DNA of 63,819 bases, counting the filler, from Aduncisulcus paluster (taxonomy: Eukaryota): assembly GCA_024181965.1 (NCBI GenBank). It is 8 parts of 8 records of this genome, joined end to end, with 100 filler letters (N's around TTAATTAATTAA, not from the genome) between each part and the next. Parts side by side here need not be neighbours in the genome. Positions count along the whole stretch, not along the records: positions 41,244 to 50,671 come from BQXS01011216.1; 7 more parts are not named here. One strand, written 5' to 3'. Position numbers and translations under genes: made by a program. The stretch's first letter is position 1, and each line of letters opens with the position of its first letter. Shown here in pieces: positions 3,042 to 59,023 of this stretch. Under the pieces are notes generated by a model. That model was not told the DNA's origin, made no database searches, and was given only the letters and a program-made list of their open reading frames with translations.

Positions 3042-3572
3042 ACACATCAATAGCATTCCAGTATTGTTTACATGGTGTAATAAAGTACTCTAAAATTGAA
3101 TAGATCTTCACTCTCTTTCGTTTTATTTCTTTTTTGTGTTTTAAGGTGAGAATCACTGTGGTTCAACCACAAAGTAGCACCACCATAAACTTACAGTTGT
3201 CAATTCTGCCGGTACCGGCACTGCCGTACTTACTTATAGCCTTAGCTACGCCGAAAAAATTAATATATAAAGATAAAACTATTAGTAACGGGAAGTACCG
3301 TTATTTCTGTTTCATCCCTTTTCTATATCATCCACCTGTGTAGAAAAAGCACGCCAAGCTTCAGTGCTGCATGAAAACCGACCAGAAAATTCTTAAATTG
3401 CCAGTTTATTATAAATAAAATGGAATATTAACAAGATTATTTTTGATTGGGGTTCATGATGGTTGAAGCCAAAACTTCGTTTTTCAATTTGATCCAAACT
3501 TAAGAAGCTTGGAAATTCAGTTATTGTGAAAAACTATTTTATTGGTTAATTTAAATTGATATTGTCGAAAAT

Positions 3573-6500: not shown

Positions 6501-9500
6501 ACAGGTCAGTGTAGTGCAGGTCAGTTGGCTTCTTCTGATGATTCGAAGGTGATGATTGAAGAGCAACAAGAGAAAGAGAAAGATGACGAGGAAGAACAAG
6601 GCCAAGAAGAGTTTGAACAAGAAGAAGAGGAGGAATGTATCAATAATGAAAGACAGGTCCAGATCTTAGAGAAAGTTGCAGATGAAATGTATAGATCTGA
6701 TGTGAAGAGTAGCAAGAAAATTAGCATAATTACTACTAAAACTAGCCATGCTGAAAGATCTTCCTCTTCTCCTTCTTCCTCTTCTCCTTCTTCCTCTTCT
6801 CCTCCACAAGAAGATGAAGTTGGACAAGATAAGAAACCTGGTCGTAAATCTCTAAAAACTCTGGACTTTAAGAAGATTCCATTGATTGAAAATTCACGAT
6901 TCTTGTCCAAATTATTATCTCCAAGAATCATATCTCAAGGGAGAAAAAACAATACTGAAGGTATTTCGCCATTACTTATTGTACCTGGAGCCGGTGGAAG
7001 TATTCTCAGGTGTAAGGATAAATTGACAGGGAAAGATTTCGTTGTCTGGCCTCGTGTTATAGGGACTTGTGCTTATGTAGAACGCTTCATGTGGGGCAAA
7101 TACAATGCTGAAACTGAATTTTACGAACATTATCTATATCCTGAACGGTTTTCCATATATCCTGGTCGCGATAACCACGGGTTATATGGTGTAGAGAGTC
7201 TATTAACCGATATTCCCATCGTGGGGAATCGATTGGGAGGTCAATTCAGGTTTATGATTAATTTCTTTAAAAAGAAACGTGGTCTGGTACCTGGTGTAAC
7301 GATGTTTGGATTTCCATACGATTGGAGGCAGGACATGAGTGCTTCTTGGATGCTTGATGATTTACAAGAAGCTATCGAAAATGCTTATATCAAAAGCGGT
7401 GCAAGGAAAGTCGATATTGTGTGCCATTCCTTGGGTGGGCTTGTGCTCTTATATTACTATAAACTACGTCATGACCATTGCATGCAATTCGTGCGTTCTA
7501 TATCTTCAATTGGGACCCCGTATAGGGGTGCAGCAGGCATCGCTACAGGATCTCCCCTTCTTGGTTACTCGTTTAAATTGGGCTATCTCAATCAGAGAAC
7601 ATTCTCTATCTTGCAGGGGACTTGTCCTGCATACTTGCATCTTAGTCCCTGTGCATTTAGTGTTGTTAGGGGTGATATGGCAAGTGGAATGAGAATGCGA
7701 GTGAGAGAACGGAAGAAATACTCTGTGTCAGAGTGGATTGTTGAATGGAACAGACGTAAGACGGCAGAAATTGAGGAGATTCGGAAGAAACTATCCTCAC
7801 GCGATGGTTCTGATCGTGAATCTCTGGTAGCCCTTGACACTGAAGAATCTAATGAAAGTGGTTGTGCAAAAGGAGATGATGATACTGTGATAAATATCGA
7901 GTATAGTGCGGAATCGAGTCCCTTTGCCAACGTTGAGTTCTTTTTCCACCCTTCTCATGGTACTCTTGCTGTGTCACCATGTCGAGCTATCAGGGTGTCC
8001 CCCAATTGTACCACAAGAGATGGTTTTAAAGAGATTGCTGAAGCTAGATGGTCTACAGGATCTTCCTCAAATGACAACTCTGAATGGGTGACTCCTGGAA
8101 ATAGGGGTGAAAAAGAAGTGAGAGAAAGGATGGAATGGGTCAAGAAGCATCGTGAAGGCTTACTGTCTTCCAAACCCAAGGTTAACCCTACGATGGTCAG
8201 TTCCGATTGTACTGTCATTCTCAGTCAAGAATCAATAGTACAACAGTCAACCTCAAGGGAAGAAGAAGATGATTCTACAACAGACAATTCAACTCATACT
8301 TCCACTTCTTCTTCTTCCTTACAAGATGACCAAGACTATAGTCCATCGTTCAAACTTTTATCCGCTTTTATAAAACTCCCCGAAAAAGATGTTCTCCCTT
8401 TGCGAATCTGGAAGAAAACGTTGAAGCAATTCCAAACTGAAGACAAAGAAATCATGAGGAAAGAAATTGAAAGGATTGAGAAAGAAAGGAAAAGAATGGA
8501 AATTCTTGAGAAGAAGAAGGAAAGAAAACTCCACAAGATGCTCAAAACCTTTAAAAGTGATGTTTTACAGGTGCTTCCTCTCTCTTCTGCCATTCTTCGC
8601 GGAGATAAGAATGATAAAAAGCAAAAGGAAGAAGAGATAGAGCTTAAGGGAGATGATCAAATGAAGGATGGTTGTGATGTTGAAAAGGAAGAAAAGATCG
8701 AAGGCGAGGAACAACAAAAGATTATTCCTCATCTCATTCCTTCTCAATCGCCTATTTTGGGATCAGAATCTCCTATCATTCGTGAGAAAGAACCTCCATC
8801 TCTTGTTGGTGTTGAAACTCTGGATTCTTCTAAAAATAGAACCAAAGTTTCTCAAACTCAACCAATGCCACAACAGTCCAAACAACAAGATGTTGCTGTT
8901 CCTGATGCTACCCACACTCCTATTCCTTCGTTTTCTTCCATTTCTCAGCATATTACACCATTCTCCAGTGAATTCCCAATGTCACCTCTTCTACTGGAGA
9001 CAAGGAAATGGTATCATTCAGCGTTTATCTCTACAAATGGTCTAGATGAAGAGTACGTCACGAATGAAGAAATTCACTCCATTACAAAAGATCTTCTTGA
9101 ATCAGACAAATCCCTCCATGTCGATGGTGTTAACGTGTGGAAATATATCCAAGATACCATTGAAGAACGCAAGAAAACGGTATCAGACAAGGATATGAAA
9201 CGTAAATTCCTTAATGAAGTTCGGTTTGGTAGACAAAAACATACTGTTCCCGTCACATCTTTGAGTTCTGACATCCTTGATCCTCAAGATCTAATTGAAT
9301 CTATCGTTTCTGACGACCCTTTGTCAAAAAGTGCGAAAGAAATGGGTCAGTTAGTCAACCAAAGAGAAGGAGAATGGTGGAAAACTGGGGGATTTCATTC
9401 CGCCACATTTACTGCAGCCTCTTCTGTGGCTTGTGTCAGTGAGGTCCAATCAATATTAAAAAAGGAAGATGAAAAAGAAGGAGATGGTATCCATGCTCCA

Positions 9501-10580
9501 AAAATAGACAATGAGAAAGAGAGTGAGCTTGAACATTTTGAATGTGGTTCTGATCTCTGTGATGGTTGTGATGCCATTTCTCCTTCATCCCTTTGTAAAG
9601 AACCCATTCATAGTGATTCCACAATTGTTGTTGACTCTTCCTGTTCTCAAGTATCTCACTTGAAACCAGCAAAGAATCTCACTTCATGCCACATTGATGA
9701 TTCTGTTCGCACTGATTCTGCTCGCACTGATTCTGCTCGCACTGATCTCATGGTTGGAGGAACTGATCACCATCAACTCGATCACCATCAACAATGTCAA
9801 TCGATCACACCCTCAGTCGTGCCGTTTGGAGACACTGATTTGTTACACATGTATGACTTTGCTCGTGAATCTATGGATTATGCTCCACACCCGAATATTA
9901 AATTCGATGAGAATTGTTACCAACGTTACTGCGAACGAGCCTCCATCCCCATCCCGCCTGTTCCTGCCGATTTTTCATACAATGTCTTCTATGGACACTC
10001 AAAACCTACTGCGTGGGACTCTGTGTCAGGTGAAAGTGTTGAAGAAATGGGTGGTGATTGTGACTGCATCGGCTGCCAATGGGTTCGAGAGAGTGAACGT
10101 GGTCGTCATTTCCATTCATGTTCCTCTTCCTCTTCCTCCTCCTCTTCTTCCTCTTCTTCCTTACAACAGCAGAGAGATGTTCCCCTTGTTCCTAAAACAC
10201 ATCCTCTTACTTCACATCTTCTTCACCATCTTGTGAATAGACCATTGTCCTATACTTTCGTTCCCGGAGATGGAACGATCCCGATGTTACATGCGTTACC
10301 CCCTTTCAAGCCTTCGTCTCTTGTCGCAATAGCCAATACATCTCACTTTGGTCTTATGCGAAGTCTCTCTGTATGTGAAGGAATCTTACAAGTGATGGAA
10401 GAAAGGGATGAAATCGATCGGCAAAACTCGAGCACTCCACTATCTCAGAGGAATGATGGAGGAATTATTGGGTCAGGCGAAGTCAGTAGCGGAGAATCAA
10501 CTCCTAGGGTATTTGGAGGTGGTTTGCCTGGCGTAAAAAGTATTATCCAACGAATTCTGGGCGAATCTAGCGTAGAATAA
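3573..10580 (+). CDS. Giant protein with two LCAT/phospholipase A-like alpha/beta-hydrolase domains and long low-complexity inserts, 2335 aa
   Basis: Domain 1: PIILIPGYLES, FSHDWR, ISHGSGG, CPFYGG, GDGII. Domain 2: LLIVPGAGGS, FPYDWRQ, CHSLGG, GTPYRGA, GDGTIP, SHFGL. Confidence 0.85.
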   Translation: MPYLTSGKKLGGNGQENPIILIPGYLESTLVHEDSFGKISTIYPKFYGAESSVKGFLLDHSIPHSSVKGLVDEENGNIDSVSISRFFGSSKWSFIFSPLIKKLKAEGYIPGGNLFVFSHDWRLHDLDELNRAFYRLVVFVKSICKQSVTLISHGSGGIFVKQFLACYPKLYCCKSSSHSSQYLFQEPFISDWIAASCPFYGGSMAALSTIIFPYLHRKGIAGLSDRFTSLSSQTEALLALQSPAFLSMLPLSLLDQMKTLAPRVIMADQASFGKHKHTLDDIEGKEPSDAFKSFVVPLNVTISTLAINSYAETNCPEMGPMSFPIASVTMGESSKNPSKLPSMLSWFRSSQSHHNRHTHKQKSAMSTAPTNSHDGQAMREPDDRTSSVIDSISSTFPSDIEEYGLPEIEVSDSSVYSFRSPHSDCVASKHVKNVDEIDLGADKGTLGQQRNEEIPSSSSLSKVMSAPVSSKLSCETTTPASDDPRFKREFHSHDIKSSPECQYHDVRFTTHPEHCKSNELTFPLFDILQRCSFDLCGLDSSSTCSLATSSSSSTMDSPHSWAEHVHFLLSVLTAPMPRCRGNGSTDESSSSSPSSAHHSTIISSSMRSGDYDSTKQGHGAIVHGSSNPNYTEQSAQSAQSVPSSTPSITPLSISTLKGEKKVEEVEHGEVEIEKEVYEEYEEEEEEEEEEEEEEEEEESHHSLNTGTLGIHVLGIHVIGGTLMPTPWHTTIHTDKEKEREQMDAATHDVHHVYSDRKDAGDILKDIDIEEEKGLLDNSTFQQKDKKEVDTGRIDDGREKDVLYSNILDAVTSMCLGDTDDSSKITNPVSTPIVPKISSSRVTLTSIFGDGIIPDFSSLALSCDVTSRLSLPHTDFHSTLSCPVSIEFIMETLSQKEKERAKKAIVGSEPKLFKPIPSQTKRIRTKTRRRRRTRKVTQTVVNEMSKEEVIPNSPSSLASTQELGQYSTAQCSAAQYGTGQCSAGQLASSDDSKVMIEEQQEKEKDDEEEQGQEEFEQEEEEECINNERQVQILEKVADEMYRSDVKSSKKISIITTKTSHAERSSSSPSSSSPSSSSPPQEDEVGQDKKPGRKSLKTLDFKKIPLIENSRFLSKLLSPRIISQGRKNNTEGISPLLIVPGAGGSILRCKDKLTGKDFVVWPRVIGTCAYVERFMWGKYNAETEFYEHYLYPERFSIYPGRDNHGLYGVESLLTDIPIVGNRLGGQFRFMINFFKKKRGLVPGVTMFGFPYDWRQDMSASWMLDDLQEAIENAYIKSGARKVDIVCHSLGGLVLLYYYKLRHDHCMQFVRSISSIGTPYRGAAGIATGSPLLGYSFKLGYLNQRTFSILQGTCPAYLHLSPCAFSVVRGDMASGMRMRVRERKKYSVSEWIVEWNRRKTAEIEEIRKKLSSRDGSDRESLVALDTEESNESGCAKGDDDTVINIEYSAESSPFANVEFFFHPSHGTLAVSPCRAIRVSPNCTTRDGFKEIAEARWSTGSSSNDNSEWVTPGNRGEKEVRERMEWVKKHREGLLSSKPKVNPTMVSSDCTVILSQESIVQQSTSREEEDDSTTDNSTHTSTSSSSLQDDQDYSPSFKLLSAFIKLPEKDVLPLRIWKKTLKQFQTEDKEIMRKEIERIEKERKRMEILEKKKERKLHKMLKTFKSDVLQVLPLSSAILRGDKNDKKQKEEEIELKGDDQMKDGCDVEKEEKIEGEEQQKIIPHLIPSQSPILGSESPIIREKEPPSLVGVETLDSSKNRTKVSQTQPMPQQSKQQDVAVPDATHTPIPSFSSISQHITPFSSEFPMSPLLLETRKWYHSAFISTNGLDEEYVTNEEIHSITKDLLESDKSLHVDGVNVWKYIQDTIEERKKTVSDKDMKRKFLNEVRFGRQKHTVPVTSLSSDILDPQDLIESIVSDDPLSKSAKEMGQLVNQREGEWWKTGGFHSATFTAASSVACVSEVQSILKKEDEKEGDGIHAPKIDNEKESELEHFECGSDLCDGCDAISPSSLCKEPIHSDSTIVVDSSCSQVSHLKPAKNLTSCHIDDSVRTDSARTDSARTDLMVGGTDHHQLDHHQQCQSITPSVVPFGDTDLLHMYDFARESMDYAPHPNIKFDENCYQRYCERASIPIPPVPADFSYNVFYGHSKPTAWDSVSGESVEEMGGDCDCIGCQWVRESERGRHFHSCSSSSSSSSSSSSSLQQQRDVPLVPKTHPLTSHLLHHLVNRPLSYTFVPGDGTIPMLHALPPFKPSSLVAIANTSHFGLMRSLSVCEGILQVMEERDEIDRQNSSTPLSQRNDGGIIGSGEVSSGESTPRVFGGGLPGVKSIIQRILGESSVE

Positions 10581-15477: not shown

Positions 15478-15577
15478 NNNNNNNNNNNNNNNNNNNNNNN
15501 NNNNNNNNNNNNNNNNNNNNNTTAATTAATTAANNNNNNNNNNNNNNNNNNNNNNNNNNNNNNNNNNNNNNNNNNNN
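15478..15577. other. Artificial contig spacer N44-TTAATTAATTAA-N44; also at 30404-30503, 34417-34516, 41144-41243, 50672-50771, 55443-55542, 58924-59023
   Basis: Identical 100-nt linker with stops in all six frames; genes are truncated at its edges. Confidence 0.98.
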
Positions 15578-30403: not shown

Positions 30404-30503
30404 NNNNNNNNNNNNNNNNNNNNNNNNNNNNNNNNNNNNNNNNNNNNTTAATTAATTAANNNNNNNNNNNNNNNNNNNNNNNNNNNNNNNNNNNNNNNNN
30501 NNN

Positions 30504-33360: not shown

Positions 33361-34416
33361 TTATTTCCATGGAAGTAGAGATAATCGTTCAGCTGCAATT
33401 GTTTCCTCGGGCATAGTAAATACGAGGGAGTTGATCCAGAAATCTCGACTATTCTTATCATTCCACATTCCTTTCCCTTCAATCTCACATAACACAACAT
33501 TCATCAAATCAATAGGAAGAAAGTACCATTCAAATTCATGCTTAGGTTTTGTAAATTCATATTTCTTGAATGTCTTCTTACCATCACAATCAGTGAAAGT
33601 GAAGAGAAGAGAGGGTGAACCGCCATACTTATCCACACAGATATAAGCCCCTTTCATTGGACTAGGTAATGGGAAAGGGATGGAAAGATGGGATAAACAA
33701 ACACAACATTCTCCTTTTAACATTCTTTGTGCTTGTGAACTCATATCATACTCCTCAGATTCCTTACAAACCGAATCTTTCTTGCACTTAACCATTGAGA
33801 ATAAAGGAGCTACAAGCTTGGGATCATCTCGTAGAATGGGAATAGAATCTCTACCTTCAGATTCTTCATCTCCTTCCTTAACAAACTCTGGTTTCACAAC
33901 AGGAGTTTCAGACCATAGTTTCTCTCTGGCTTCACGAGATAAGGTTTCTTCAGAAGTTTCTTGTCGAATTAAAACAAGGGATTCGATACAAAAATTCTCT
34001 TCTTCTCTTCTTTTCCCTCTAATCTCACACAAAACAACATCAGGGAGATCAACAGAAAGGAAATACCAATGTTTACCTTCAAATCCAGAAAATTCGTATT
34101 TCTTGGATATTTTATCACCCTTCGAAGATGTAAGAGTGAAGGTAAGATATTCTGGATGATACCAACCACCAAATAGACAGATATATACCCCTTTCATTGG
34201 GGAACATAGGGAGAAAGGAATGGAGATATGAGTAAAGTGACCATTATTTACCTCTCCTCTCATCATATCTTCTGCTTCAACACTTTGATCGTACTCTTCG
34301 TCATCTTCTTCCTTGGTTCCATCTATTGCTGTGATAGTTGTGATTTCTGAACTCTTAATATTCGGGGCATCTCGAGGAATTGGACAGCAATTAATATTCC
34401 CTTCATGAATAAACTC
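33361..34416 (-). CDS. Hypervariable beta-domain family protein, free two-domain form, 5'-truncated at contig edge
   Basis: Collinear with 737-1837 and 38291-39367; frame open upstream of the annotated ATG (EFIHEGNINCCPIPRDAPN); ends ERLSLLPWK. Confidence 0.85.
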   Translation of the reverse strand, partial: EFIHEGNINCCPIPRDAPNIKSSEITTITAIDGTKEEDDEEYDQSVEAEDMMRGEVNNGHFTHISIPFSLCSPMKGVYICLFGGWYHPEYLTFTLTSSKGDKISKKYEFSGFEGKHWYFLSVDLPDVVLCEIRGKRREEENFCIESLVLIRQETSEETLSREAREKLWSETPVVKPEFVKEGDEESEGRDSIPILRDDPKLVAPLFSMVKCKKDSVCKESEEYDMSSQAQRMLKGECCVCLSHLSIPFPLPSPMKGAYICVDKYGGSPSLLFTFTDCDGKKTFKKYEFTKPKHEFEWYFLPIDLMNVVLCEIEGKGMWNDKNSRDFWINSLVFTMPEETIAAERLSLLPWK

Positions 34417-34516
34417 NNNNNNNNNNNNNNNNNNNNNNNNNNNNNNNNNNNNNNNNNNNNTTAATTAATTAANNNNNNNNNNNNNNNNNNNNNNNNNNNN
34501 NNNNNNNNNNNNNNNN

Positions 34517-38290: not shown

Positions 38291-39367
38291 ATGAGGTCAT
38301 CCATTGGTGTTATTCAAACTGTGGGGCCTGAATTTATACATGAAGGAGATAAGTATTGTTCTCCAATTCCTGGAGATGCCCCCAATATTAAGAGTGCAGA
38401 GTTTCCAACTATCAAAGCAATAGATGGATCTAAGAAAGAAGGTGATAAAGAGTACGATCAGAGTTCTAAAGCACAAAAGATGATGAAAGGAGAGTATAAT
38501 TGTGGATATTTTACTCATATCTCCATTCATTTCTCTTCATCTTCCCCAATGAAAGGGGCTTATATCTGTCTATCAAGCTTTTCACCTCCATCACACCTTA
38601 TCTTCACTCTCACATCTTCAAAGGGTGATAAAACATCCAAGAAATACGAATTTCCTGAATTTTATGATGATTGTTGGTATTTCCTTCCTGTTGATCTCCC
38701 TGGTGTTGTATTGTGTGAGATTACAGGGAAAGGAAGAAAGAAAGAGTGGTTTAGAATCGATTCCCTTGTTTTCATTAGAGAAGAAACTCCTGAAGAAATC
38801 AAATCTCGTGAAGCCAGAGAAAAACTTAGGTCTGAAGCTCCAGTTGTGAAACCAGAGTTTGTTAAGGAAGGAAGGGGAGATTCTATTCCCATTCCACGAG
38901 ATGATCCAAAGCTTGTAGATCCTTCATTCTCGATGGTTAAGTGCAAGCTTGATGCGTTTAGTAAGGAATCTGAGTTTTATGATATGAGGTCAAAAGCACA
39001 AGCAATGTTAAAAGGGGAATGGGGTGTATGGTTATCCCATCTTTCTATCCCTTTCCCATCACCTAGTCCAATGAAAGGTGCTTATATCTGTGTGAATTGT
39101 AATATAAGTTCACCCTCTCTTCTTTTCACTTTCACTGATTGTGATGGTAAGAAGACATCCAAGAAGTATGAATTCACAAAACTTAAACATTTTCATGAAT
39201 GGCACTTCCTTCCTATTGATTTGCCAAATGTTGTATTGTGTGAGATTGAAGGGAAAGGAGCGTGGATAAATAAGAATAGTCGAAATTTCTGCATCTACTC
39301 CCTTGTATTTACTATGCCCGAGGAAACCATTGCAGCTGAACGATTATCTCTACTTCCATGGAAATAA
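38291..39367 (+). CDS. Hypervariable beta-domain family protein, free two-domain form, 358 aa
   Basis: Full-length paralog of 737-1837 with the same scaffold motifs and ERLSLLPWK end. Confidence 0.87.
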   Translation: MRSSIGVIQTVGPEFIHEGDKYCSPIPGDAPNIKSAEFPTIKAIDGSKKEGDKEYDQSSKAQKMMKGEYNCGYFTHISIHFSSSSPMKGAYICLSSFSPPSHLIFTLTSSKGDKTSKKYEFPEFYDDCWYFLPVDLPGVVLCEITGKGRKKEWFRIDSLVFIREETPEEIKSREAREKLRSEAPVVKPEFVKEGRGDSIPIPRDDPKLVDPSFSMVKCKLDAFSKESEFYDMRSKAQAMLKGEWGVWLSHLSIPFPSPSPMKGAYICVNCNISSPSLLFTFTDCDGKKTSKKYEFTKLKHFHEWHFLPIDLPNVVLCEIEGKGAWINKNSRNFCIYSLVFTMPEETIAAERLSLLPWK

Positions 39368-41143: not shown

Positions 41144-41243
41144 NNNNNNNNNNNNNNNNNNNNNNNNNNNNNNNNNNNNNNNNNNNNTTAATTAATTAAN
41201 NNNNNNNNNNNNNNNNNNNNNNNNNNNNNNNNNNNNNNNNNNN

Positions 41244-41942
41244 GCCAACAATTTCGTGTGTGGTGTCAATAGTTCTGGTGAAACTGCCTGTGTGTGTGCG
41301 ACAGGATTCTACCTTGACACAGCCTCTAACGTCTGTGTTGCTGCTGCTGATGGTGCATGTGACTCTTGTGGTGGAGAAAGAGGAGAATGTGTTTACTCGA
41401 CCGATCTTTCAACCGCTATCTGTGAATGTTTCGATGGATGGTTTGGAGATGAATGTTCACGACAATGTCCGACAGATGCAGACGGAAATGTTTGTAGCAC
41501 CAATGGTACTTGCAGTTCTGTGTTTAATACATGCTCTTGTTCCGATGACACATTCTTTGGGTCTGCATGTCAATTGGTATGTATCGCTGACGACAATTGT
41601 TCTGGAAATGGAACGTGTGTGTTTGCAATAGAAAATGATTCAGAGCTTGTGACGTGTCAATGTTATGATGGTTTTGGAGGAGACTCATGTGAAACAATTC
41701 TCTCTACGTCTTCATTGGAAACGTGGCAACTTGTCCTGATCATTTGTGGAGGTGTTGCAGTTGTTGTTGTTGCAATTGTAATCGTGAAGTGTTGTTGCTG
41801 TTCTTCGAAGGGGGAGAAGGGGCCTAAAGCTGATAGACAATTGCATTCCATTGCTCCTATAATGCATCCAGCACCTGTTATGCAAATTTCTCATAATCCC
41901 CTTGCTTTGTTAGACGTTAGCAATTTATTGGATGAAGTATAA
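41244..41942 (+). CDS. Cys-rich EGF-like repeat type I membrane protein, C-terminal part
   Basis: Repeated CxCxxG(F/W)xGxxC units, TM segment LVLIICGGVAVVVVAIVIV, juxtamembrane CCCC. Confidence 0.85.
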   Translation, partial: ANNFVCGVNSSGETACVCATGFYLDTASNVCVAAADGACDSCGGERGECVYSTDLSTAICECFDGWFGDECSRQCPTDADGNVCSTNGTCSSVFNTCSCSDDTFFGSACQLVCIADDNCSGNGTCVFAIENDSELVTCQCYDGFGGDSCETILSTSSLETWQLVLIICGGVAVVVVAIVIVKCCCCSSKGEKGPKADRQLHSIAPIMHPAPVMQISHNPLALLDVSNLLDEV

Positions 41943-42293
41943 ATGTTGGAATAGATCTCGAACGATTCATTCCTGAAGAAAGTCCATACGCAAGACACAT
42001 CTTGAGATGACTCGCAGAAGTGGAACAAATTCCAACGAAATAATACAAAAATAACGTGAACATGACTTCACCGTCCCGGTTGTCAAATGGACTGAAATAT
42101 TGAGGTATTCCTGATCATTTGTTGTTGAAGATGAGAAGAAATGGAGGTCCAATGTATGCATTGCATACTATGCAATATAAGAAGTAAAGTATACTCCATA
42201 TGATCCATGAACAGTTTCCTCATTGCAAGTTATCTTCAAAATATTTCTATTCCAAGAGAACAATCCAATGTATGGCCACTCCATAATAGAGTT

Positions 42294-45200
42294 CTAACAT
42301 ACAGAATCGTCAGAATACTCATATAAACCATCACAGCCTCCCTCCTTGCCATAACTTGCTTTCCCTTCAACATTCCCAAATAATTCACAAATATCTCCAT
42401 CCAATTTACCTTGTCGTTTTATGATATCCTCAATTTTTGGACATTTCCACCCTTCTCCAATTCTTGGAAGTGAATCTTTGATGATTTGCACCTTCTCACG
42501 GGCTTCATGCACACTCATGCGATTGATGGATTCATACTGAGTAAGACCAATGAAAACTTCGTTCATAACATTATACACCTTCGAATCAGTGGGTTTTAGA
42601 GATTGGAAAATAGGGCAATCAGAGAGCTTTGTGAGTTTGTCTTCCTTCATAAGGTTTAAAAGACAATCAATAAATTTTGATGGATCAAGAATCCTCTGTA
42701 AAATAGGAATTCTGGAATAAGGAGTATACCCCAAGAATAGAGCGAGAATTGATACTCCAAGAGAATATCCGTCACTTCTCTGATCTTGAATTCCTCTAAA
42801 AGCTTCAGGTGAATTGTATACAAGAGTTCCACAAGTGGACTGTTCTGGTTGTTGGGGTTCTTTTTCCGTTGTTCCCATTCTCGTTGAGTGGGTTAAAGAT
42901 GATGAAATTGTTTCTTGGAGGAACATTAATCCAAGATCAGCGAGAACAACGATGCATTCTCCATCTTTGGAATCAACACGAACAAGGAAATTTGCAGGTT
43001 TTATGTCTCGATGGACAAGACCTGATTTTGCCTCAAACACATCATCAAGGCATTCAATCATTCCAACACAGAGAGCACTCAATTTCAGAGGGTTTGTTCG
43101 AGAAGAATCAAAGCACCAACTCTTCGCAAAATCTTCAACAGAACCTCCAGCACAATATTCCATGATAAACCCATAGAGACCTTTTCGATAGTCTTCATCA
43201 AATAGATCAAGAATATACAAGGGACGGGGAATACGATGAGATAATAGAGGATTTGAAAATAATTTGAGTTGGTTTTCAAATTCATTTCGGCAATTACGAA
43301 TAATATTTCTCAAATCTCTATGATCAATCTTCCACATATCGGGCAAAGGGATCACCTTCTTCAGAACACAATGAATAATAGGAATATCAACCTTAACAAG
43401 AAGAACTTCACCAAATAAACCACTTCCAATTTTACAGAGAGGAGAAACACTTAACTCGGATTTTCTAGTAATAGAAGGAATTTTCATGGAGATTGGAGAA
43501 AAAAATGATATAGGAGACGGGGGAATATCGTCACCTCGGACAAAGATAAGGGAGCGGATGGAGAAAGATCTTCTTCTTCCTTGTTCCCAACTTCCTTTTT
43601 CTTGTATTTCACACTTCTTAACGTCAGATATTCCAAAAGGAAGGAAAACCCATTGATACTCATATGAATATTCAGGTTCTGCGAATTCATACTTCTTGCT
43701 TGTCTTCTTATCGTCACAATCAGTGAAAGTGAAGAGAAGAGAGGGTGTACTATAATCCTTATCCACACAGATATAAGCACCTTTCATTGGACTAGGTGAT
43801 GGGAAAGGGATAGAAAGATGGGATAATGTCACTTCTCCTTCACCTTTTAACATTTTTTGAGCCTTTTCACTTCGGTCATACTCCTCAGATTCCTTACAAT
43901 ACGAATCATGCTTTCCCTTGACCATCTCAAAAGAAGGGTTATTAACGGCTGCATTACCACGTGGAATGGGGATGGCAGATGCATTGCCAGAATTAACAAA
44001 CTCTGATTTAATGGTGGGCTACATATCATTTTTGAAAAAGAGATATATAATGGTATTAGAAACAAATCGAGAGATAATATTGTCAAACAAGATTAGCGTG
44101 AATCGTATCAAANNNNNNNNNNNNNNNNNNNNTATTAACGGCTGCATTACCACGTGGAATGGGGATGGCAGATGCATTGCCAGAATTAACAAACTCTGAT
44201 TTAATGGTGGGCTACATATCATTTTTGAAAAAGAGATATATAATGGTATTAGAAACAAATCGAGAGATAATATTGTCAAACAAGATTAGCGTGAATCGTA
44301 TCAAATAATAAAACAAAGAAATGTGAAAATATTAAACAAATAAAATATAATGAACATACAGCTTTAGACCATTGTTCCTCAATGGATTCTCGAATACAAC
44401 GTTCTTCAGGGGTTTCTTCTCGAAAGAAAACGAGGGAGGGGATGTGAAAGTATCGGCTATTCTTCTCTTTCCACATTCCTTTCCCTTCAATCTCACACAA
44501 TACAACGTTATCCAAATCAATAGGAAGGAAGTGCCATTCATATGAATGTTCAGGTTTTGTGAATTCATACTTCTTGGATGTCTTCTTACCATCACAATCA
44601 GTGAGAGTGAAGAGAAGAGAGGGTGAACTAGCATTCTTATTCACACAGATATAAGCACCTTTCATTGGACTAGGTGATGGGAAAGGGATGGAAAGATGGG
44701 ATAAGTAAACACTACATTCCCCTTTTAACATTCTTTGTGCATTTGAACTCTGATCATACTCCTCAGATTCCTTACTCACCGAATCATCCTTGCACTTAAC
44801 CTTTGAGAATGAAGGATCTATAACATTTGGATCATCACGTGAAATGGGAATAAAACCTCTACCTTGCGATTTTCCATCTCCTTCCTTAACAAATTCTGGT
44901 TTTACAACAGGAGCTTCAGACCATAGTTTTTCCTCGGCTTCACGAGTAATGACTTCATCTAAGGTTTCTTCGCGAATGAAAACAAGGGATACAATCGAAA
45001 AAATATCATCAAAATACTCCTCTTCAACAAGAGAGTCGATTTTAGAAGACTCTTCATCTTCAAAATACTCTTTCTTTCTTCCTTTCCCTGTAATCTCACA
45101 CAGAACAACATCAGAGAGATCAATAGGAAGAAAGAACCAGCTATCATTTTCTAATTCAGGAAATTCATATTTTTTAAACATTTTTGAGCCCTTTGAAGAT

Positions 45201-47798
45201 GTAAGAGAGAAGATAAGGTGTGAGGTTGATCGGGTATATCCTCCTCCAATACAAATATAAGCACCTTTAATGGGGGTAGATGTGGAGAAAGGAAGGGAGA
45301 TATCTGTAAATTTTCCCCGATTACCCTCTCCTTTCATCATCTTTTGTGCTGCAGAACACTGATCATATTCTCTATCACCTTTTCTCTTGGTCCTATTCTT
45401 GGACTCGATAGCAGTTATATCAGGACTCTTAATATTCGGGCAATCTCGAGGAATTGGAGAGCTAGATTCGTCACCTTCATGAATAAACTCTGATTTAATG
45501 GTGGGCTACATATCATTTTTGAAAAAGAGATATATAATGGTATTAGAAACAAATCGAGAGATAATATTGAAAAATAAGATTAGCGTGAATCGTATCAAAT
45601 AATAAAACAAAGAAATGTGAAAATATTAAACCAATAAAATATAATGAACATACAGCTTTAGACCATTGTTCCTCGATGGATTCTCGAATACAACGTTCTT
45701 CAGGGGTTTCTTCTCGAAAGAATATGAGGGAGGAGATGTCAAAACATCGACTATTCTTCTCTTTCCACATTCCTTTCCCTTCAATCTCACACAATACAAC
45801 ATTATCCAAATCAATAGGAAGGAAGTGCCATTCATAGTCATTTTCAGGTTTTGTGAATTCATACTTCTTGGATGTCTTCTTACCATCACAATCAGTGAGA
45901 GTGAAGAGAAGAGAGGGTGAACTATCATACTCATTCACACAGATATAAGCACCTTTCATTGGACTAGGTGATGGGAAAGGGATAGAAAGATGGGATAATG
46001 TCACTTCTCCTTCACCTTTTAACATTTTTTGAGCCTTTTCACTTCGGTCATACTCCTCAGATTCCTTACAATACGAATCATGCTTTCCCTTGACCATCTC
46101 AAAAGAAGGGTTATTAACGGCTGCATTACCACGTGGAATGGGGATGGCAGATGCATTGCCAGAATTAACAAACTCTGATTTAATGGTGGGCTACATATCA
46201 TTTTTGAAAAAGAGATATATAATGGTATTAGAAACAAATCGAGAGATAATATTGTCAAACAAGATTAGCGTGAATCGTATCAAATAATAAAACAAAGAAA
46301 TGTGAAAATATTAAACAAATAAAATATAATGAACATACAGCTTTAGACCATTGTTCCTCAATGGATTCTCGAATACAACGTTCTTCAGGGGTTTCTTCTC
46401 GAAAGAAAACGAGGGAGGGGATGATAAAACCTCGACAATTCTTCATTTTCCACATTCCTTTCCCTTCAATCTCACACAATACAACATTATCCAAATCAAT
46501 AGGAAGGAAGTGCCATTCATATGAATGTTCAGGTCTTGTGAATTCATACTTCTTGGATGTCTTCTTACCATCACAATCAGTGAAAGTGAAGAGAAGAGAG
46601 GGTGAACTATAATCTTCATCCACACAGATATAAGCACCTTTCATTGGACTAGGTGATGGGAAAGGAATGGAAAGATGGGATAAGTAAACACTACATTCAC
46701 CTTTCAACATTTCTTGTGCATCTGAACTCTGATCATAATACTCAGATTCCTTACTAAACGCATCATCCTTGCCCTTAACCTTTGAAAATGAAGGATCAAC
46801 AAGCTTTGGACCATCAGGTGGAATGGGAATAGAATCTCTACCACCTTCCTGAACAAACTCTGGTTTCACGACTGGAGCGTCAGACCAGAGTTTGTTTCGA
46901 AAAGCTTCTTTGGCTTCACGAAATATAGTTTCTTCATGTGTTTCTTCTCGAAAAAATATGAGGGATTCGATTTCAAAAGACTCTTTCTTTCTTCCTTTCC
47001 CTGAAATCTCACACAGAACAACATCAGAGAGATCAATTGGGAGATAGAACCAACTATCATTTTCTAATTCAGGAAATTCATATTTTTTAAACATTTTCTC
47101 CCCCTTTGAAGATGTTAGAGAGAAGATAAGGTGTGAGGGTGGAGAACTGGATGATTCTTCTCCAATACAAATATAAGCACCTTTAATGGGAGTAGATGTG
47201 GAGAAAGGAAGGGAAATATCTGTAAATACTCCTCCATTACCTCCCCAATAAATCTCCTCTCCTTTCATCATCTTTTGTGCATTAATACTCTGATCATAAT
47301 CTTCATCACCTTTTCCCTTGGTCCTATTCTTAGCTTCAATAACAGTTATATCAGGACTCTTAACATTCGGGGAATCCCGAGGAATTGGAGAGCTAGATTC
47401 GTCACCTTCATGAATAAACTTTGGTTTAACCTCTTGAATCTAATAAATTAATTGAGTTTTTGGTCGAAATGAAGCAATAAAAAACACCCGAAACAGAAAA
47501 TGGGTTATGAAAGCAATATGGGCATTATTTTTCAAATTAATGATATAAAACATCATAAAATGTGATAAATAACCTTCATGAATAAACTTTGGTTTAACTT
47601 CTTGAATCTAACAAATTAATTGGGCATTTGGTGGAAATAAAGCAATAAAAAACACCCGAAACAGAAAAGGGGTTATGAAAGCAATATGGGCATTATTTTT
47701 CAAATTAATGATATCAAACATCATAAAATGTATAAATTCAATAACTTTCAGAAACATACAATATCTTGGCTACGTTCTGAGCTTGGTTTTGGATCCAT
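42294..47798 (-). CDS. Multi-exon gene: six hypervariable beta-domains fused to a C-terminal protein kinase, ~1515 aa. Exons 47798-47760, 47439-46339, 46190-45654, 45505-44360, 44018-42294
   Basis: GTATGT donors and TAG acceptors give in-frame joins WSKA|PTIKSEF, matching the unspliced WSEAPVVKPEF of free paralogs. Exon lengths 39, 1101, 537, 1146, 1725 are all multiples of 3. Kinase motifs IGSGLFGEV, VLKK, HRDIKPANFL, DLG, GTLVYNSPE, DGYSLG. The 20-N gap at 44113 could hide more units. Confidence 0.82.
44212..46338 (-). repeat. Three near-identical 148-nt phase-0 introns (46338-46191, 45653-45506, 44359-44212)
   Basis: Each reads GTATGTTCATTATATTTT...CACGCTAATCTT...AAAATGATATGTAG with only a few substitutions. 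Confidence 0.88.
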
Positions 47799-48995
47799 TG
47801 TGTTCTAAAATGTCTATGATGAGAACACGAACAATAATAAAAATAATATGATAATTTTAACAAAGAATGTCACCACAATCATCGAACAATTTAGTGAGTT
47901 TCAAGGAGGAAATGACGACAAGAACAAAAAAGAACAGCCAGCGAGAGAACCAGTGAATAAAACAGGGTGATTATGGATTGACAAGAAGTTAATATCTAAT
48001 TAACGAAAAATTATGACATACAATATTTTCAATATTTCTTTTACAACGGGAAGAAATGAAGTTTTAGAATTCAAAACTCTGTATAATAACAATGCAAGAT
48101 GACATTGCAGAATATATCGATTAAAAAATATAAATGGTTTCTTTCTAACATACATTGGATACTAGTATTGTCATTCCACTCCTGACACAAAATCGTTTCC
48201 TAAGTCCCGAGTTTTGTTCACATATTGGATTGTAAAGTTTTATTGTTTGATGATAAGTTGTAGTTGTAATCTGTGAATGTTGTGGATTAATTGGTAAATG
48301 ACTATATTTGTCTGATTCCTGGTTTCTCCCCTCCAGAGCTTGTTTGATTTTGCAATATCATTTGTTTTAGATTTTTTTGTTTTAAATTCTCCGTTGAGAG
48401 TTAGTGAATCCTTAGTTTCTTTTCCAAGTGGTGTAATAATCCTGCTTTATGTTGTTGACTCAAACAATGGTGATGTTGGACACTCCATCTCTTAGAGCAG
48501 TAGCATAATTCACTGGATATAAGAGCTATATGAGATGAGATATTGTCCGATCCAGTTGTTTCTGAAGATAATCCAAACACTCCAGTAATCTACATCGACT
48601 CTGGTTTCTTGATCATTTGGGTGCTAAACCGAACCATTTAAACACTGGATATTGGGAAGTTTCTATGTCGGAAGTATAGCTGTAGAATTTATTCTTAACT
48701 CTTCAATAGTAACAAATGCGCCTTTGTTGCAGAGTCTATTCTTGCTATTTTTTCAAGACGTCTTCTACCACATTCCAGTGGAAAAACTCAAGGAATATGT
48801 ATTAACACTGACATAATAATCTGTTGAGTCAAGAATGATTCTATTTGATCTGGCTCTCTTCAAGATCATGAAGTTCATGAAATGATTTAAGATCCGCAAT
48901 ATTAGAGTGCACTCGGTGCACATTTGCAAATTATTTGTATAATTTATTATCCAATAATATCAATAAAACCTGAAAAAAAGCCATAAAACCGAAGA

Positions 48996-50671
48996 TTAAG
49001 CGAAACTTAAGATCCCCCCCAATTTCTCCAACATTTCCCTAGTGACATCGAGTGTAATACCCTCGATTGATCCAGCCTTCTCCACTTCATCTCTGATAGC
49101 ACTGAACACACACTTATCAATGGCTGTTGTCAGAGATCCATAAGGAACACCTCCAATAAAAGCTACATCCTCTTCCAAGGCTCTCATTACACTCTCCACT
49201 CCTGCAGGCAAGGCATCCTTCTTGATCCTCACAGCGAAAGGAAGAGAGGAGAGATGGTTCTCGATCACTAATTGGACAGCCTCAGCGCCAGTCACTCCGG
49301 GGATACCAACTTTCTCAGAGAACACACCTGCCACACCAAGCTGAGTCATGACTGAAAGACTGTTGCAGGTGCAGATCACACACAGGGAATGGCCAGGCTG
49401 GGAACGAATGGATAACGCAGACACAAGGGTCTGGAAGATAGGGTTAGAGAAACGCTGACCAATGGCAACATACTCGATGAGTTTCTCAATGCCATCAATG
49501 ATAAGGACTGCCTGAGGACACTTTCTGGCATCCTCAAATGCCCTGACAATCTCGTCACACTTACGAAGCTCACCACGAACTCTAGTGATAAGTTTCTCAG
49601 CAGATATGACTTTTGTGAAAGGAATTCCACTCTCCAATGCACACACAGCTGCCACAACACTCTTCCCAATGCCGTGTTCACCGTGTATCAGGATGGAACT
49701 ATGACTGGTAATACCTACTTTCATACGTTCAATAGAGTCACGAACAGAAGAGACAGTCTCACGTACCATGTCTGAATATAACAAAAGATGGGATGATGTG
49801 AGCTTACCGTACATGGGAGAGGAAGGAGAAGGAACAGGGACAGACTTGGGGAGCATTGTCTTGATGTCATCTTGGTCACTCCCAAAGGCAGCATGGACTT
49901 CTTCGAGGGCACCAATAAAGTCATCACGGGTGACCAAGAGTTTAGATGCACCCGTCTGGAGATCCTGGATACTCTTCTGGATGTCGGAGAGTCTTAACAC
50001 TCTTGACATGGCAAATGAACGGGCACTCTTAACAAGACCGGCCAGCTCGGCACCAGTGAAGTTCTTTGTCTTCGCAGCAAGCTCTTCAAGGTCGACATCA
50101 TCTGCCAGCACACCATTCTCAGTCATTACTTTCGTGTGGATACGCAAGATCTCCACCCTACCTTCCTCATTGGGCAATTCAATGGGAACATGCACCTCGA
50201 AACGACCAGGTCTGAGTAAGGCTTCATCAATGAGGTCTTTCCTATTTGTCATACCAATCACAAGGATGTTGGAGAGTGCATCCACACCATCTAGCTTGGA
50301 CAGGATCTGATTCACAATACTATCATGGACTCCTGTACTGTCACTCCTTGTACCTCTCTGGCGACAAATGGCATCGATCTCGTCGAATATGATAAGATGC
50401 AACTCACTGTCGTCTCCTTTCTCAGCCTGCTCTTCCTCGGCATCCTTGAAGAGCTCTCGAATATTCTCCTCGGACTGTCCTACATACTTGTTCAAAATGG
50501 AGGGACCGTTCACAACCTTAGGCTCCTTCGTGTGCAGCATCTTTCCAATCTGACGGGCAAGAAGAGTCTTTCCAGTTCCTGGAGGTCCATATAAAAGCAT
50601 TCCACGAACATGCTCAACTCCCATCTTCTTCACCATGTCGGGAGGGAACACACGAGAGGCAAACACACGTC
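48996..50671 (-). CDS. NSF: Vesicle-fusing ATPase NSF/Sec18, 5'-truncated
   Basis: FASRVFPP, GPPGTGKTLLARQIG, LHLIIFDEIDAIC, GMTNRKDLIDEALLRPGRFEV, D2 domain with IGQRFSN. Confidence 0.95.
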
Positions 50672-51321
50672 NNNNNNNNNNNNNNNNNNNNNNNNNNNNN
50701 NNNNNNNNNNNNNNNTTAATTAATTAANNNNNNNNNNNNNNNNNNNNNNNNNNNNNNNNNNNNNNNNNNNNTCAGTGGAAATATTTCTCGTTTGCATCGT
50801 TTGATGCCCAATTATATGCATATGTCATGTCTTAAGCATGATTCGCTGCATTCATGCTTTAAACCAAGAGATCTGCCAGCAACATTGAACGGTATCATCT
50901 CGTGTGCTTATTTATTCCTCTTTTATAAACGTTTAAATGGAGTATCCCTTCCTTTGTCGATTTGTACACACAAGATGCTGAACAGAAAGAATGTGAGTTC
51001 AAAACCATTAACCTTGATGGCCCTCAGCTATACAATACAGTGTACACCCAATACAATCTCCTAACAAGAGCGTGATTTCTGTATTACCCCCCTCTTTATT
51101 GAACTCAGCAAATTGGATGATTAATTGATCGTTGCCACCGAGATTATATTTTTAAAAAGACTTTAATAATCAATTGAGTATTTAAATGTCGTTTTTTATG
51201 AATGATTTCGTCCTCCTTCGGACCTTGTGAAGATTCCTCAGAATCCTGAGGCAAAAATGGATCCAATAATAGAACGTGACATTTGTTTGTTTTGCATCCA
51301 TACTCAACCAAGAAAACGGCA

Positions 51322-54892: not shown

Positions 54893-56122
54893 TGCCGTTT
54901 TCTTGGTTGAGTATGGATGCAAAACAAACAAATGTCACGTTCTATTATTGGATCCATTTTTGCCTCAGGATTCTGAGGAATCTTCACAAGGTCCGAAGGA
55001 GGACGAAATCATTCATAAAAAACGACATTTAAATACTCAATTGATTATTAAAGTCTTTTTAAAAATATAATCTCGGTGGCAACGATCAATTAATCATCCA
55101 ATTTGCTGAGTTCAATAAAGAGGGGGGTAATACAGAAATCACGCTCTTGTTAGGAGATTGTATTGGGTGTACACTGTATTGTATAGCTGAGGGCCATCAA
55201 GGTTAATGGTTTTGAACTCACATTCTTTCTGTTCAGCATCTTGTGTGTACAAATCGACAAAGGAAGGGATACTCCATTTAAACGTTTATAAAAGAGGAAT
55301 AAATAAGCACACGAGATGATACCGTTCAATGTTGCTGGCAGATCTCTTGGTTTAAAGCATGAATGCAGCGAATCATGCTTAAGACATGACATATGCATAT
55401 AATTGGGCATCAAACGATGCAAACGAGAAATATTTCCACTGANNNNNNNNNNNNNNNNNNNNNNNNNNNNNNNNNNNNNNNNNNNNTTAATTAATTAANN
55501 NNNNNNNNNNNNNNNNNNNNNNNNNNNNNNNNNNNNNNNNNNCTATCTCCAAGTTAGAACATGATTTTATCAACTGAAAAATCGAAAATGATTATTGTAT
55601 AAATTATTATGATCCCGATTAACGATTCCATGCACCAGCTTCACTTCATTGGTCAAAGCCATCTTCCAAAGTCCAATTTGAGGCAAATATTAGCGACAAG
55701 ATCCTGTCATGTTCTTTGAAACATTCATTAGGCATGCCATGAAACAAAGAACTGCGATGAAAATAATCTTTATCTTGCTGGAATGCACCTTTGTTATGAT
55801 GAGATCGTAACCCACTTTTAGATGCTCTCTATTCCACGATTATGCTTGTCACAATATTTTCTAATAATATATTCGATGATATATATCCTTTTAATTTATA
55901 TTCTATATTCTTCAACGGTATTGGTTCTCTAAAACCGATTATCGCTGAAATTTATTCCATACAATTCACATTCGATTATATATCAACATATCTACATATC
56001 AATTCATCACTTGAAAGTGAAACAACAAGGAAAAAATGTGGTGAAGTGAAGTGAGATGATAAGCGAAGACTCGAGAAGCTGAAGAGATAACTCTGTTTTA
56101 TTTCCATGTCCAATCATCTTGG

Positions 56123-58923: not shown

Positions 58924-59023
58924 NNNNNNNNNNNNNNNNNNNNNNNNNNNNNNNNNNNNNNNNNNNNTTAATTAATTAANNNNNNNNNNNNNNNNNNNNN
59001 NNNNNNNNNNNNNNNNNNNNNNN

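Follow-up and report, generated by a model that had tools for sequence, protein, structure and literature searches.

How does a gene come to carry three introns that are almost letter for letter the same, and does the organism make any use of them? The question is raised by a gene of Aduncisulcus paluster (assembly GCA_024181965.1) that lies on the minus strand, at positions 47798-42294 of a stretch of DNA of 63,819 nucleotides (nt), which we will call the window. The gene encodes six copies of a repeated domain followed by a protein kinase. A preliminary description of the locus saw in it an intracellular receptor kinase whose specificity could be reshuffled by alternative splicing or by unequal recombination between the identical introns, and suggested that free two-domain relatives act as adaptors or decoys. 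We consider a plainer account probable, without being sure of it: the protein is an array of six modules joined to a kinase, its repeats belong to a family known so far from A. paluster only, they arose by ordinary tandem duplication and were then reworked by recombination, and their beta sandwiches serve recognition.

The open frames between 47798 and 42294 splice into one five-exon gene (leader, A1-B1, C1, A2-B2, C2-kinase; A, B and C are the repeated domains). Its parts, in the order of transcription, are as follows.

47760-47798, minus strand: exon 1, 39 nt, the 13-codon leader MDPKPSSERSQDI, with the start codon at 47798-47796.
47440-47759, minus strand: intron 1, 320 nt, GTATGT...TAG, phase 0.
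46339-47439, minus strand: exon 2, 1101 nt, 367 codons, with A1 (46876-47439) and B1 (46339-46875) uninterrupted by an intron.
46191-46338, minus strand: intron 2, 148 nt, phase 0, between WSKA and PTIKSEF.
45654-46190, minus strand: exon 3, 537 nt, 179 codons, domain C1.
45506-45653, minus strand: intron 3, 148 nt, phase 0, between WSKA and PTIKSEF.
44360-45505, minus strand: exon 4, 1146 nt, 382 codons, with A2 (44912-45505) and B2 (44360-44911).
44212-44359, minus strand: intron 4, 148 nt, phase 0, between WSKA and PTIKSEF; this is the full copy, on the right-hand contig of a scaffold join.
42294-44018, minus strand: exon 5, 1725 nt including the stop, 574 codons, with C2 (43524-44018) and the kinase.

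Every intron begins with the donor GTATGT and ends with the acceptor TAG. Since the exon lengths (39, 1101, 537, 1146 and 1725 nt) are all multiples of three, all introns are in phase 0, and the internal exons are symmetric and in frame, as cassette exons are. The public gene model ADUPG1_009374 (P0121, A. paluster, 1539 amino acids (aa)) has the same junctions and is 100% identical over exon 2; the gene is already known, being present in GenBank as an annotated hypothetical protein. Gene models of this type were predicted by Braker2 with RNA-seq hints, and the genome note counts 15,316 proteins and 11,743 introns (PMC9933649). The preliminary description was therefore right to read a single spliced gene with phase-0 introns, and right that any internal exon could be skipped, duplicated or lost without breaking the frame.

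The 148-nt introns are as alike as had been reported. Introns 2 and 4 are identical (148/148), intron 3 matches both of them at 144/148, and all three split the same peptide. Intron 1 is unrelated to them; it is marked by a 168-nt tandem duplication (47404-47563 against 47572-47731, 94% identical, spanning 47404-47731 on the minus strand), which repeats the acceptor and about the first 34 nt of exon 2 as an out-of-frame pseudo-exon. Near-identical introns of fixed length bring to mind introner-like elements, which sit at non-homologous sites and spread to unrelated genes. Here, in contrast, a BLAST search with the intron against the whole window gave three full copies and a 94-nt partial copy (44019-44112), all at one homologous junction of this one gene: the introns spread because the flanking exons were duplicated. 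The locus resembles more closely the tandem duplication and shuffling of symmetric phase-0 exons, in which introns likewise stand exactly at domain borders and are all in phase 0, and the concerted evolution of tandem repeats by gene conversion, in which a homogenised tract is likewise younger than the duplication that surrounds it. Compared with the usual cases of either kind two things are slightly unusual, namely that the intron is fully identical while the flanking exons have a synonymous divergence (dS) of 0.15-0.29, and that a clean chimeric exon has been preserved. With regard to the intron itself, an Rfam search over the 9428-nt contig returned chance rows alone (PCA3_2 at 20.5 and 16.9 bits against a gathering score of 100) and the predicted fold is unremarkable (z-score 0.56); given the lack of an Rfam match and the ordinary fold, no intron-borne RNA gene was found.

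What made the introns identical? When unit 1 (A1-B1, intron, C1) is compared with unit 2 (A2-B2, intron, C2), most segments of 60 nt are 60-95% identical, and seven consecutive segments stand at 60/60. The two units share the following tract.

45936-46423, minus strand: identical tract of 488 nt, whose partner in unit 2 is 44444-44133 continued by 44112-43764.

The tract starts 85 nt before the end of B, takes in the intron completely and runs 255 nt into C; the next 100 nt on its two sides hold 10 and 16 differences. At synonymous sites A1 and A2 have diverged by 0.29, and B1 and B2 by 0.145; the introns of the two units differ at 0 positions, where some tens of differences would be expected in a neutral 148-nt intron of the same age. 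The exon that follows is a recombinant. Its 5' half (alignment columns 1-270) matches C2 at 255/255 and B1 at 187/255; its 3' half (from column 271) matches B1 at 262/282 and B2 at 266/282 (93-94%), and C2 at 181/264. In C1, in other words, the 5' half is of C2 type and the 3' half of B type, and the switch from one to the other falls in a 45-nt stretch, with SHLSIPFPSPSPMKGAYICV as its core, that is identical in all four B/C copies. Unequal crossing-over between misaligned repeats, or gene conversion between them, would be expected to leave just such a copy. Both breakpoints lie in exon sequence, one in the 45-nt core and the other at the end of B, and since the introns lie inside the exchanged 488 nt, the identical introns are passengers of recent recombination. 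The earlier suggestion of unequal recombination between identical introns is thus half right: recombination between the repeats did take place, as the chimeric C1 documents, but it broke the exons and not the introns. An intact chimeric exon together with an intron homogenised inside the same gene makes a clean small example of concerted evolution.

Several features of the assembly bear on how this locus should be read. The scaffold of the gene occupies 41244-50671 (9428 nt, as long as the contig on record for P0121), and seven spacers join the eight contigs of the window. The relevant features are given below.

41144-41243 and 50672-50771: spacers of the form N44-TTAATTAATTAA-N44, read directly.
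15478-15577, 30404-30503, 34417-34516, 55443-55542 and 58924-59023: spacers with the same 44-12-44 gap pattern, their form being inferred.
794-1816, 33382-34416 and 38312-39346: three two-domain paralogs, on contigs other than that of the gene.
44113-44305: assembly artefact, 20 N followed by 173 nt that exactly repeat 43940-44112.

Because the window is made of artificially joined contigs, arguments from neighbourhood across the spacers are void, and because the three paralogs lie on other contigs, their linkage with the kinase gene is not shown. Inside the gene, the gap of 20 N at 44113-44132 has identical sequence on both sides (173/173 nt), and the last 94 nt of intron 4 are repeated at 44019-44112 on the left-hand contig. 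All seven 20-N gaps in the window (13356, 18923, 22141, 27091, 35834, 44113 and 54177) are flanked by exact duplicates of 159-266 nt, which means that such gaps are unmerged contig overlaps. The gap at 44113 is most likely one of them and hides no repeat units, so that the hint of a variable number of units, which had been attached to it, disappears. The duplicated overlap adds a false mini-exon of 24 aa to P0121; once this is removed, the merged protein has 1515 residues. Users of this assembly should be aware that its 20-N gaps duplicate 159-266 nt and insert false repeats into predicted proteins. At 22141, for example, the open reading frames (ORFs) on both sides have a repeated GIGVHVVRLVGG... 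stretch that comes from the gap duplication; the motifs of these ORFs suggest a DEAD-box helicase.

What, then, is being duplicated? All six domains of the gene are homologous (A against B/C at 38-47% identity, B against C at 60-80%), and, judged by these comparisons, the domain called C is a B-type copy. The module, of about 180 residues, is predicted to be a galactose-binding-domain-like beta sandwich with a helical linker. In an AlphaFold2 model of exon 2 (A1-B1), made from an alignment with 73 two-domain relatives (74 sequences), each module has an extended segment with a short helix, then the sandwich, then a long helix; the predicted local distance difference test score (pLDDT) is 92.9 and the predicted template modelling score (pTM) 0.86. 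Foldseek matched this model to tandem CBM32 at E 2e-10, and also to DDR1, neuropilin b1b2, factor VIII C1-C2 and allantoicase. VIA-align, which is independent of Foldseek, gave 78 chains at Z >= 8. Its top single-domain matches (Z 11-12, 118-153 residues aligned, root-mean-square deviation (rmsd) 2.6-3.9) superpose the jelly roll over most of the domain, as a galactose-binding-domain-like fold should; APC10 reached Z 12.2 (153 residues aligned, rmsd 3.9), the muskelin discoidin domain 11.6, IFT25 11.3, a PITH protein 11.2, TXNL1 10.8, the HERC2 DOC domain 10.8, and several CBM32 modules about 11.

By sequence, none of 12 copies matched the Pfam families of this fold (F5_F8_type_C, ANAPC10, PITH and others) at E <= 10, a threshold at which three unrelated single matches appeared, and exons 2-4 had no Pfam match at E <= 1 besides a chance 3-PAP row. 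The ESM Atlas returned unnamed bacterial clusters only, at 0.88-0.90, with no family. Some relatives bear the UniRef label 'NudC domain-containing'; we rejected it, as Pfam gave no such match for P0004, P0007 and P0013. A literature search that covered titles and abstracts, together with the genome note, found no published description of the module, which seems to be an undescribed galactose-binding-domain-like family without a Pfam model.

The way in which the copies vary is of interest for what they may do. Among 627 near-full copies, entropy is low in the strands and peaks at domain positions 61-64, 86-90, 115-119 and 142-150; positions 38-47, in the N-terminal extension, are likewise variable. 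By the strand order of the model the four variable segments are alternate inter-strand loops, and the loops in between are conserved turns (PSPSP, DSDG, DN). Since alternate loops of an end-to-end sandwich share one end, the variable positions should, according to the secondary-structure string of the model, form one apex, as in the binding sites of discoidin and CBM32 domains. In A2, a variable loop also carries a 21-residue acidic insertion, DEESSKIDSLVEEEYFDDIFS (44980-45045, minus strand), that is absent from A1 and from the three paralogs in the window. At the site of this insertion one contig of a DNA sequencing run skips 72 nt and has 9 other letters; it is probably a paralogue without the insertion.

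The kinase lies in exon 5, where C2, without its linker helix, is followed by a low-confidence linker of about 20 residues, the kinase (Pfam match at 42648-43433) and a disordered tail. The Pfam family Pkinase (PF00069) is matched at 58 bits against a cut-off of 31.7 (E 1.3e-15, exon 5 residues 196-457). The catalytic motif set of protein kinases comprises the glycine loop, the beta-3 lysine, HRDxKxxN, the DFG aspartate and the APE glutamate. The full set can be read in P0121 as GSGLFG, VLKK, HRDIKPAN, DLG and SPE, just as had been described, including DLG for DFG; DGYSLG and the arginine in INRMSVHEA come downstream. Going by these motifs the kinase is probably catalytically active. A model of C2 with the kinase (pLDDT 78) exceeds 90 in the C-lobe; its only regions of low confidence are the N-terminal 15 residues, the linker between C2 and the kinase (164-181), the activation segment (373-392) and the tail (544-574). 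All 47 Foldseek matches listed are kinases (target-normalised TM 0.64-0.79), as the bilobal kinase fold would have it, and the nearest folds are of tyrosine-kinase and TKL type (FGFR, TrkA, JAK2, B-Raf, RET). The best solved relatives by sequence, among the best 60 of 245 PDB matches, are CDPK, RIPK1 and TTK at E ~1e-8. The combination of DLG and HRDIKPAN, which we take to be characteristic of NEK6/7, had prompted an assignment to NEK; it was dropped, there being no NEK among the same best 60 of 245. In a large protein search the relatives better than E 1e-13 were all from A. paluster (34-55% identity) and the next match stood at E 1e-8. The kinase clade is divergent and apparently lineage-specific.

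Can such a protein be called a receptor? A hydropathy scan found no signal-like or membrane-like segment (the top 19-aa Kyte-Doolittle mean, on what is a crude scale, was 1.83 and fell within kinase beta strands), and the N-terminus is hydrophilic. As the protein has no membrane-spanning hydrophobic segment, 'intracellular' is a reasonable reading, and the protein is probably soluble and intracellular, in agreement with the preliminary description. A receptor kinase in the strict sense has a signal peptide or a transmembrane segment, and the scan detected neither; in its membrane sense the label has to be given up. As names for roles, 'receptor', 'adaptors' and 'decoys' are speculation.

The gene is far from alone. 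We collected at least 320 proteins of the family, with at least 852 copies of the domain. A word-indexed search gave 167 relatives of 201-643 aa (of 120 listed, 118 come from A. paluster and 2 are without a source) and 89 relatives of 644-2000 aa, all from A. paluster. When a profile of the 12 copies in the window was run against 1.84 billion representatives, only 168 clusters came out at E <= 0.001, and each of the 20 that were checked (the top 2 and 18 of the weakest, among the best 150 of the 168) belongs to A. paluster. The family looks confined to this species. Counted in the first 319 proteins, the domain occurs once in 53, twice in 164, three times in 32, four times in 27, five times in 21, six times in 9, seven times in 5, eight times in 5, nine times in 2 and fifteen times in 1. 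The form met with most often is a two-domain A-B protein without introns, about 365 aa long; MSSST begins 44 of the 320 family proteins, and RLSLLPWK ends 37 of 83 such two-domain proteins. A leader of the exon 1 type opens 15 of the 320, which suggests a common 5' exon, and perhaps a common upstream region, in a sub-family: the 13-residue leader MDPK..SQDI (47739-47900) also begins P0001, P0008, P0122, P0123, P0130, P0132, P0133, P0151 and others. The WSKAPTIKSEF junction is found in 11 of the 320 proteins, with 15 occurrences.

A related kinase is present in 98 of the 320 family proteins, and in 95 of these 98 the repeats are N-terminal to it; among the 89 long relatives, a hand count of precomputed Pfam labels gave 47 with a kinase. 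There are other partners too. A C-terminal thioredoxin was confirmed in P0059 (Pfam E 1.3e-21) and P0095 (1.1e-14), and AAA, LRR, nitroreductase, MSP, chromo and GTPase domains are indicated by precomputed Pfam label only. Some of these fusions may be merged gene models of the draft annotation.

Several suggestions can be made regarding how the protein might work. The fold of the repeat is used elsewhere for recognition, and the variable positions lie in alternate loops. By means of the variable loops at one end, the sandwiches would bind ligands or partner proteins, and in this way they would recruit or regulate the kinase, a divergent one with serine/threonine-type motifs to which a flexible linker would connect all six modules. 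If correct, this would make the protein the intracellular equivalent of a discoidin-domain kinase. The gene itself arose by tandem duplication of A-B and B-type units and was remodelled later, when unequal crossing-over or gene conversion between misaligned repeats produced the chimeric C1 and the homogenised 488-nt tract. Because the introns stand exactly at domain borders, the exons are modular and in frame as a side effect. As far as architecture goes, the modular sensor-kinase of the preliminary description is a reasonable reading.

Known systems resemble parts of this picture. DDR1 and DDR2 likewise pair a discoidin-like sandwich with a kinase; Foldseek listed DDR1 as one of its matches (4ag4_A, E 5.5e-07), and the nearest folds of our kinase model are also of tyrosine-kinase and TKL type. 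Unlike DDR1 and DDR2, the A. paluster protein has no detected signal peptide or membrane segment, its catalytic loop, HRDIKPAN, is of the serine/threonine type, and it carries six sandwiches where they have a single one; a relation by sequence was not detected. Intracellular proteins with galactose-binding-domain-like folds (APC10/DOC, the PITH domains of TXNL1 and PITHD1, the muskelin discoidin domain, IFT25) share the sandwich, at Z 10.8-12.2 over 118-153 aligned residues, and a cytosolic setting. Unlike them, the A. paluster module has no sequence similarity to these families (0/12 copies in Pfam at E <= 10), has an N-terminal extension of about 60 residues and a C-terminal linker helix, and occurs in tandem arrays of up to 15 and in hundreds of copies in one species. 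Human TXNL1 combines a thioredoxin with a PITH domain of the same fold; P0059 and P0095 have a thioredoxin too, in the opposite order. Finally, fornicates have lineage-specific kinase expansions, of which the NEK expansion of Giardia is an example. There too, divergent kinases attached to repeated non-catalytic modules have radiated on a large scale within one species, but there the partners are ankyrin repeats or coiled coils and here a beta sandwich, the best 60 of 245 PDB matches here include no NEK, and the closest kinase relatives outside A. paluster stand at E 1e-8 or worse.

Public reads are available from two runs of one sample, X1, which is probably DNA, and X2, which is RNA only as a guess; both were seen as short contigs. 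X2 contigs without differences cover 42200-43080, 43142-43295 and 43268-43741 (the C2-kinase exon). The DNA contigs have depths of 1291, 1269 and 1224 on C2-kinase, 1238 and 1245 on A2/B2, and 1170 and 1160 on A1 and intron 1, similar values that hint at a single copy of each unit, though weakly, contig depth being a poor measure. The idea that the genome holds more copies of the intron than were assembled came from summed depth and was dropped, summed depth not being copy number. Seven joints are listed, with skips of 72 to 2141 nt, none of them at an exon border and none of 148 nt. We rejected them as isoforms: they either connect corresponding positions in the two units or include additional letters, which is what contigs of paralogues would show. 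Over the bins with introns 2 and 4 the depth of X2 is close to nil, whereas X1 has depth there, and this blank speaks neither for nor against splicing. Two contigs of X2, with 4 and 6 differences and so probably from paralogues, end exactly at 44018 and 44360, with 9 and 21 unmatched letters beyond; coming from one run, this hints at splicing there only weakly at best.

Might the identical introns nevertheless be a device for programmed diversity, which permits exons to be skipped or duplicated by the spliceosome, or by somatic or germline unequal recombination, to give many combinations of sensors? The layout would allow it, for the internal exons are symmetric (0-0), the three donors and the three acceptors have the same sequence so that any pair is in frame, and recombination between the repeats has occurred at least once. 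The breakpoints of this one documented event, however, are in exons and not in introns, 0 of the 7 listed joints fall on an exon border (they resemble paralogue contigs), the depths of unit-specific DNA contigs are similar, for the little that contig depth is worth, the gap that hinted at hidden units is a routine overlap artefact, and the intron has neither an RNA family match nor an unusual fold (z 0.56). We regard a device of this kind as very improbable. A more prosaic alternative is that the locus is largely a product of assembly, chimeric or collapsed from more than 800 similar domains, in which case intron identity, C1 and the number of units would all be unreal. The draft was assembled by MaSuRCA from 150-nt paired reads of fragments of about 500 nt and has an N50 of 4.6 kb (PMC9933649), thousands of paralogous contigs align to the stretch, and the 488-nt identical tract exceeds the read length and contains a scaffold join. 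Against this, the crossover in C1 lies in a shared stretch of just 45 nt, which single 150-nt reads span, and DNA contigs free of differences lie on the unit-specific C2-kinase, A2/B2 and A1 sequences at similar depth. The presence of the WSKAPTIKSEF junction in 11 of 320 proteins, from other contigs, also means that this type of junction is not unique to the locus. An assembly product on this scale seems unlikely to us.

It could also be that the repeats are structural or adaptor modules, of the kind found in ubiquitin ligases, in proteasome-type complexes or with flagellar cargo, and that the kinase is one of several enzymes that they deliver. The best single-domain structural matches do include APC10/DOC, the DOC domains of HECTD3 and HERC2, PITH proteins, TXNL1 and IFT25, and a role of this sort would suit the thioredoxin fusions of P0059 and P0095 and the label-only fusions to AAA, LRR, nitroreductase, MSP and GTPase domains. 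Some of the fusions may be merged gene models, though, the Z values do not set these classes apart from carbohydrate-binding modules, and a fixed adaptor role accounts less well than diversified recognition for variable loops that share one end; we find the proposal doubtful. The account that we prefer, duplicated and recombined modules that recognise something on behalf of a kinase, has its own difficulties, and the following points weigh against it. The sensor role is one that we infer by analogy of fold, from which function does not follow. DOC, PITH, IFT25 and CBM32, which are unrelated classes, have Z values tied within 1, and these do not tell the functional subclasses apart. In the 12 copies of the window the ratio of nonsynonymous to synonymous divergence (dN/dS, Nei-Gojobori) is 0.54-1.75 in the loops, exceeding 1 in 6 of 15 pairs, and 0.14-0.74 in the core, and with about 28 loop codons and values near 1, relaxed and diversifying selection are not separable. 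Of the 98 kinase-bearing relatives, 28 are without both HRD and DFG/DLG in their recorded sequence, many of them being partial, and some may be pseudokinases. Splicing of the gene is based on sequence signals and automatic annotation, and the short contigs of X1 and X2 list no joints across introns and none that skip an exon. Lastly, since the 488-nt tract is beyond the phasing of single reads and has a scaffold gap inside it, the order of units and their perfect identity could partly be assembly products.

The remaining observations concern other genes. On its own scaffold, the gene has only two neighbours, both of them partial ORFs unrelated to the repeat family, and one long frame on another contig may be mentioned with them.

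48996-50671, minus strand: upstream neighbour, a partial ORF with AAA ATPase motifs, NSF-like by eye.
41244-41942, plus strand: downstream neighbour, a partial cysteine-rich ORF, EGF-like by eye, with a hydrophobic segment.
3555-10580, plus strand, on another contig: an open frame of 2341 codons with long serine, glutamate and low-complexity runs and two stretches with lipase-like GxSxG motifs (SHGSGG, CHSLGG).

Whatever the function of the protein is, the intron pattern of its gene has an ordinary explanation, and it is the module that is worth keeping. It occurs in about 2% of the predicted proteins (at least 320 of 15,316; PMC9933649) of a poorly studied free-living relative of Giardia, and it has been fused repeatedly upstream of a divergent kinase clade. 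This offers a concrete example of a protist that draws on a single recognition fold to build up a large repertoire for signalling. One may go further and suppose that the family as a whole is a diversified intracellular recognition repertoire of this fornicate, made up of hundreds of sandwich domains with variable binding apices, about 100 of them wired to kinases, which is renewed by unequal recombination and possibly by exon skipping at the interchangeable phase-0 introns. We would call this bolder suggestion a long shot at present. If it were true, A. paluster would possess a protist analogue of the expanded families of innate receptors, directed at viruses, bacterial prey or environmental ligands.

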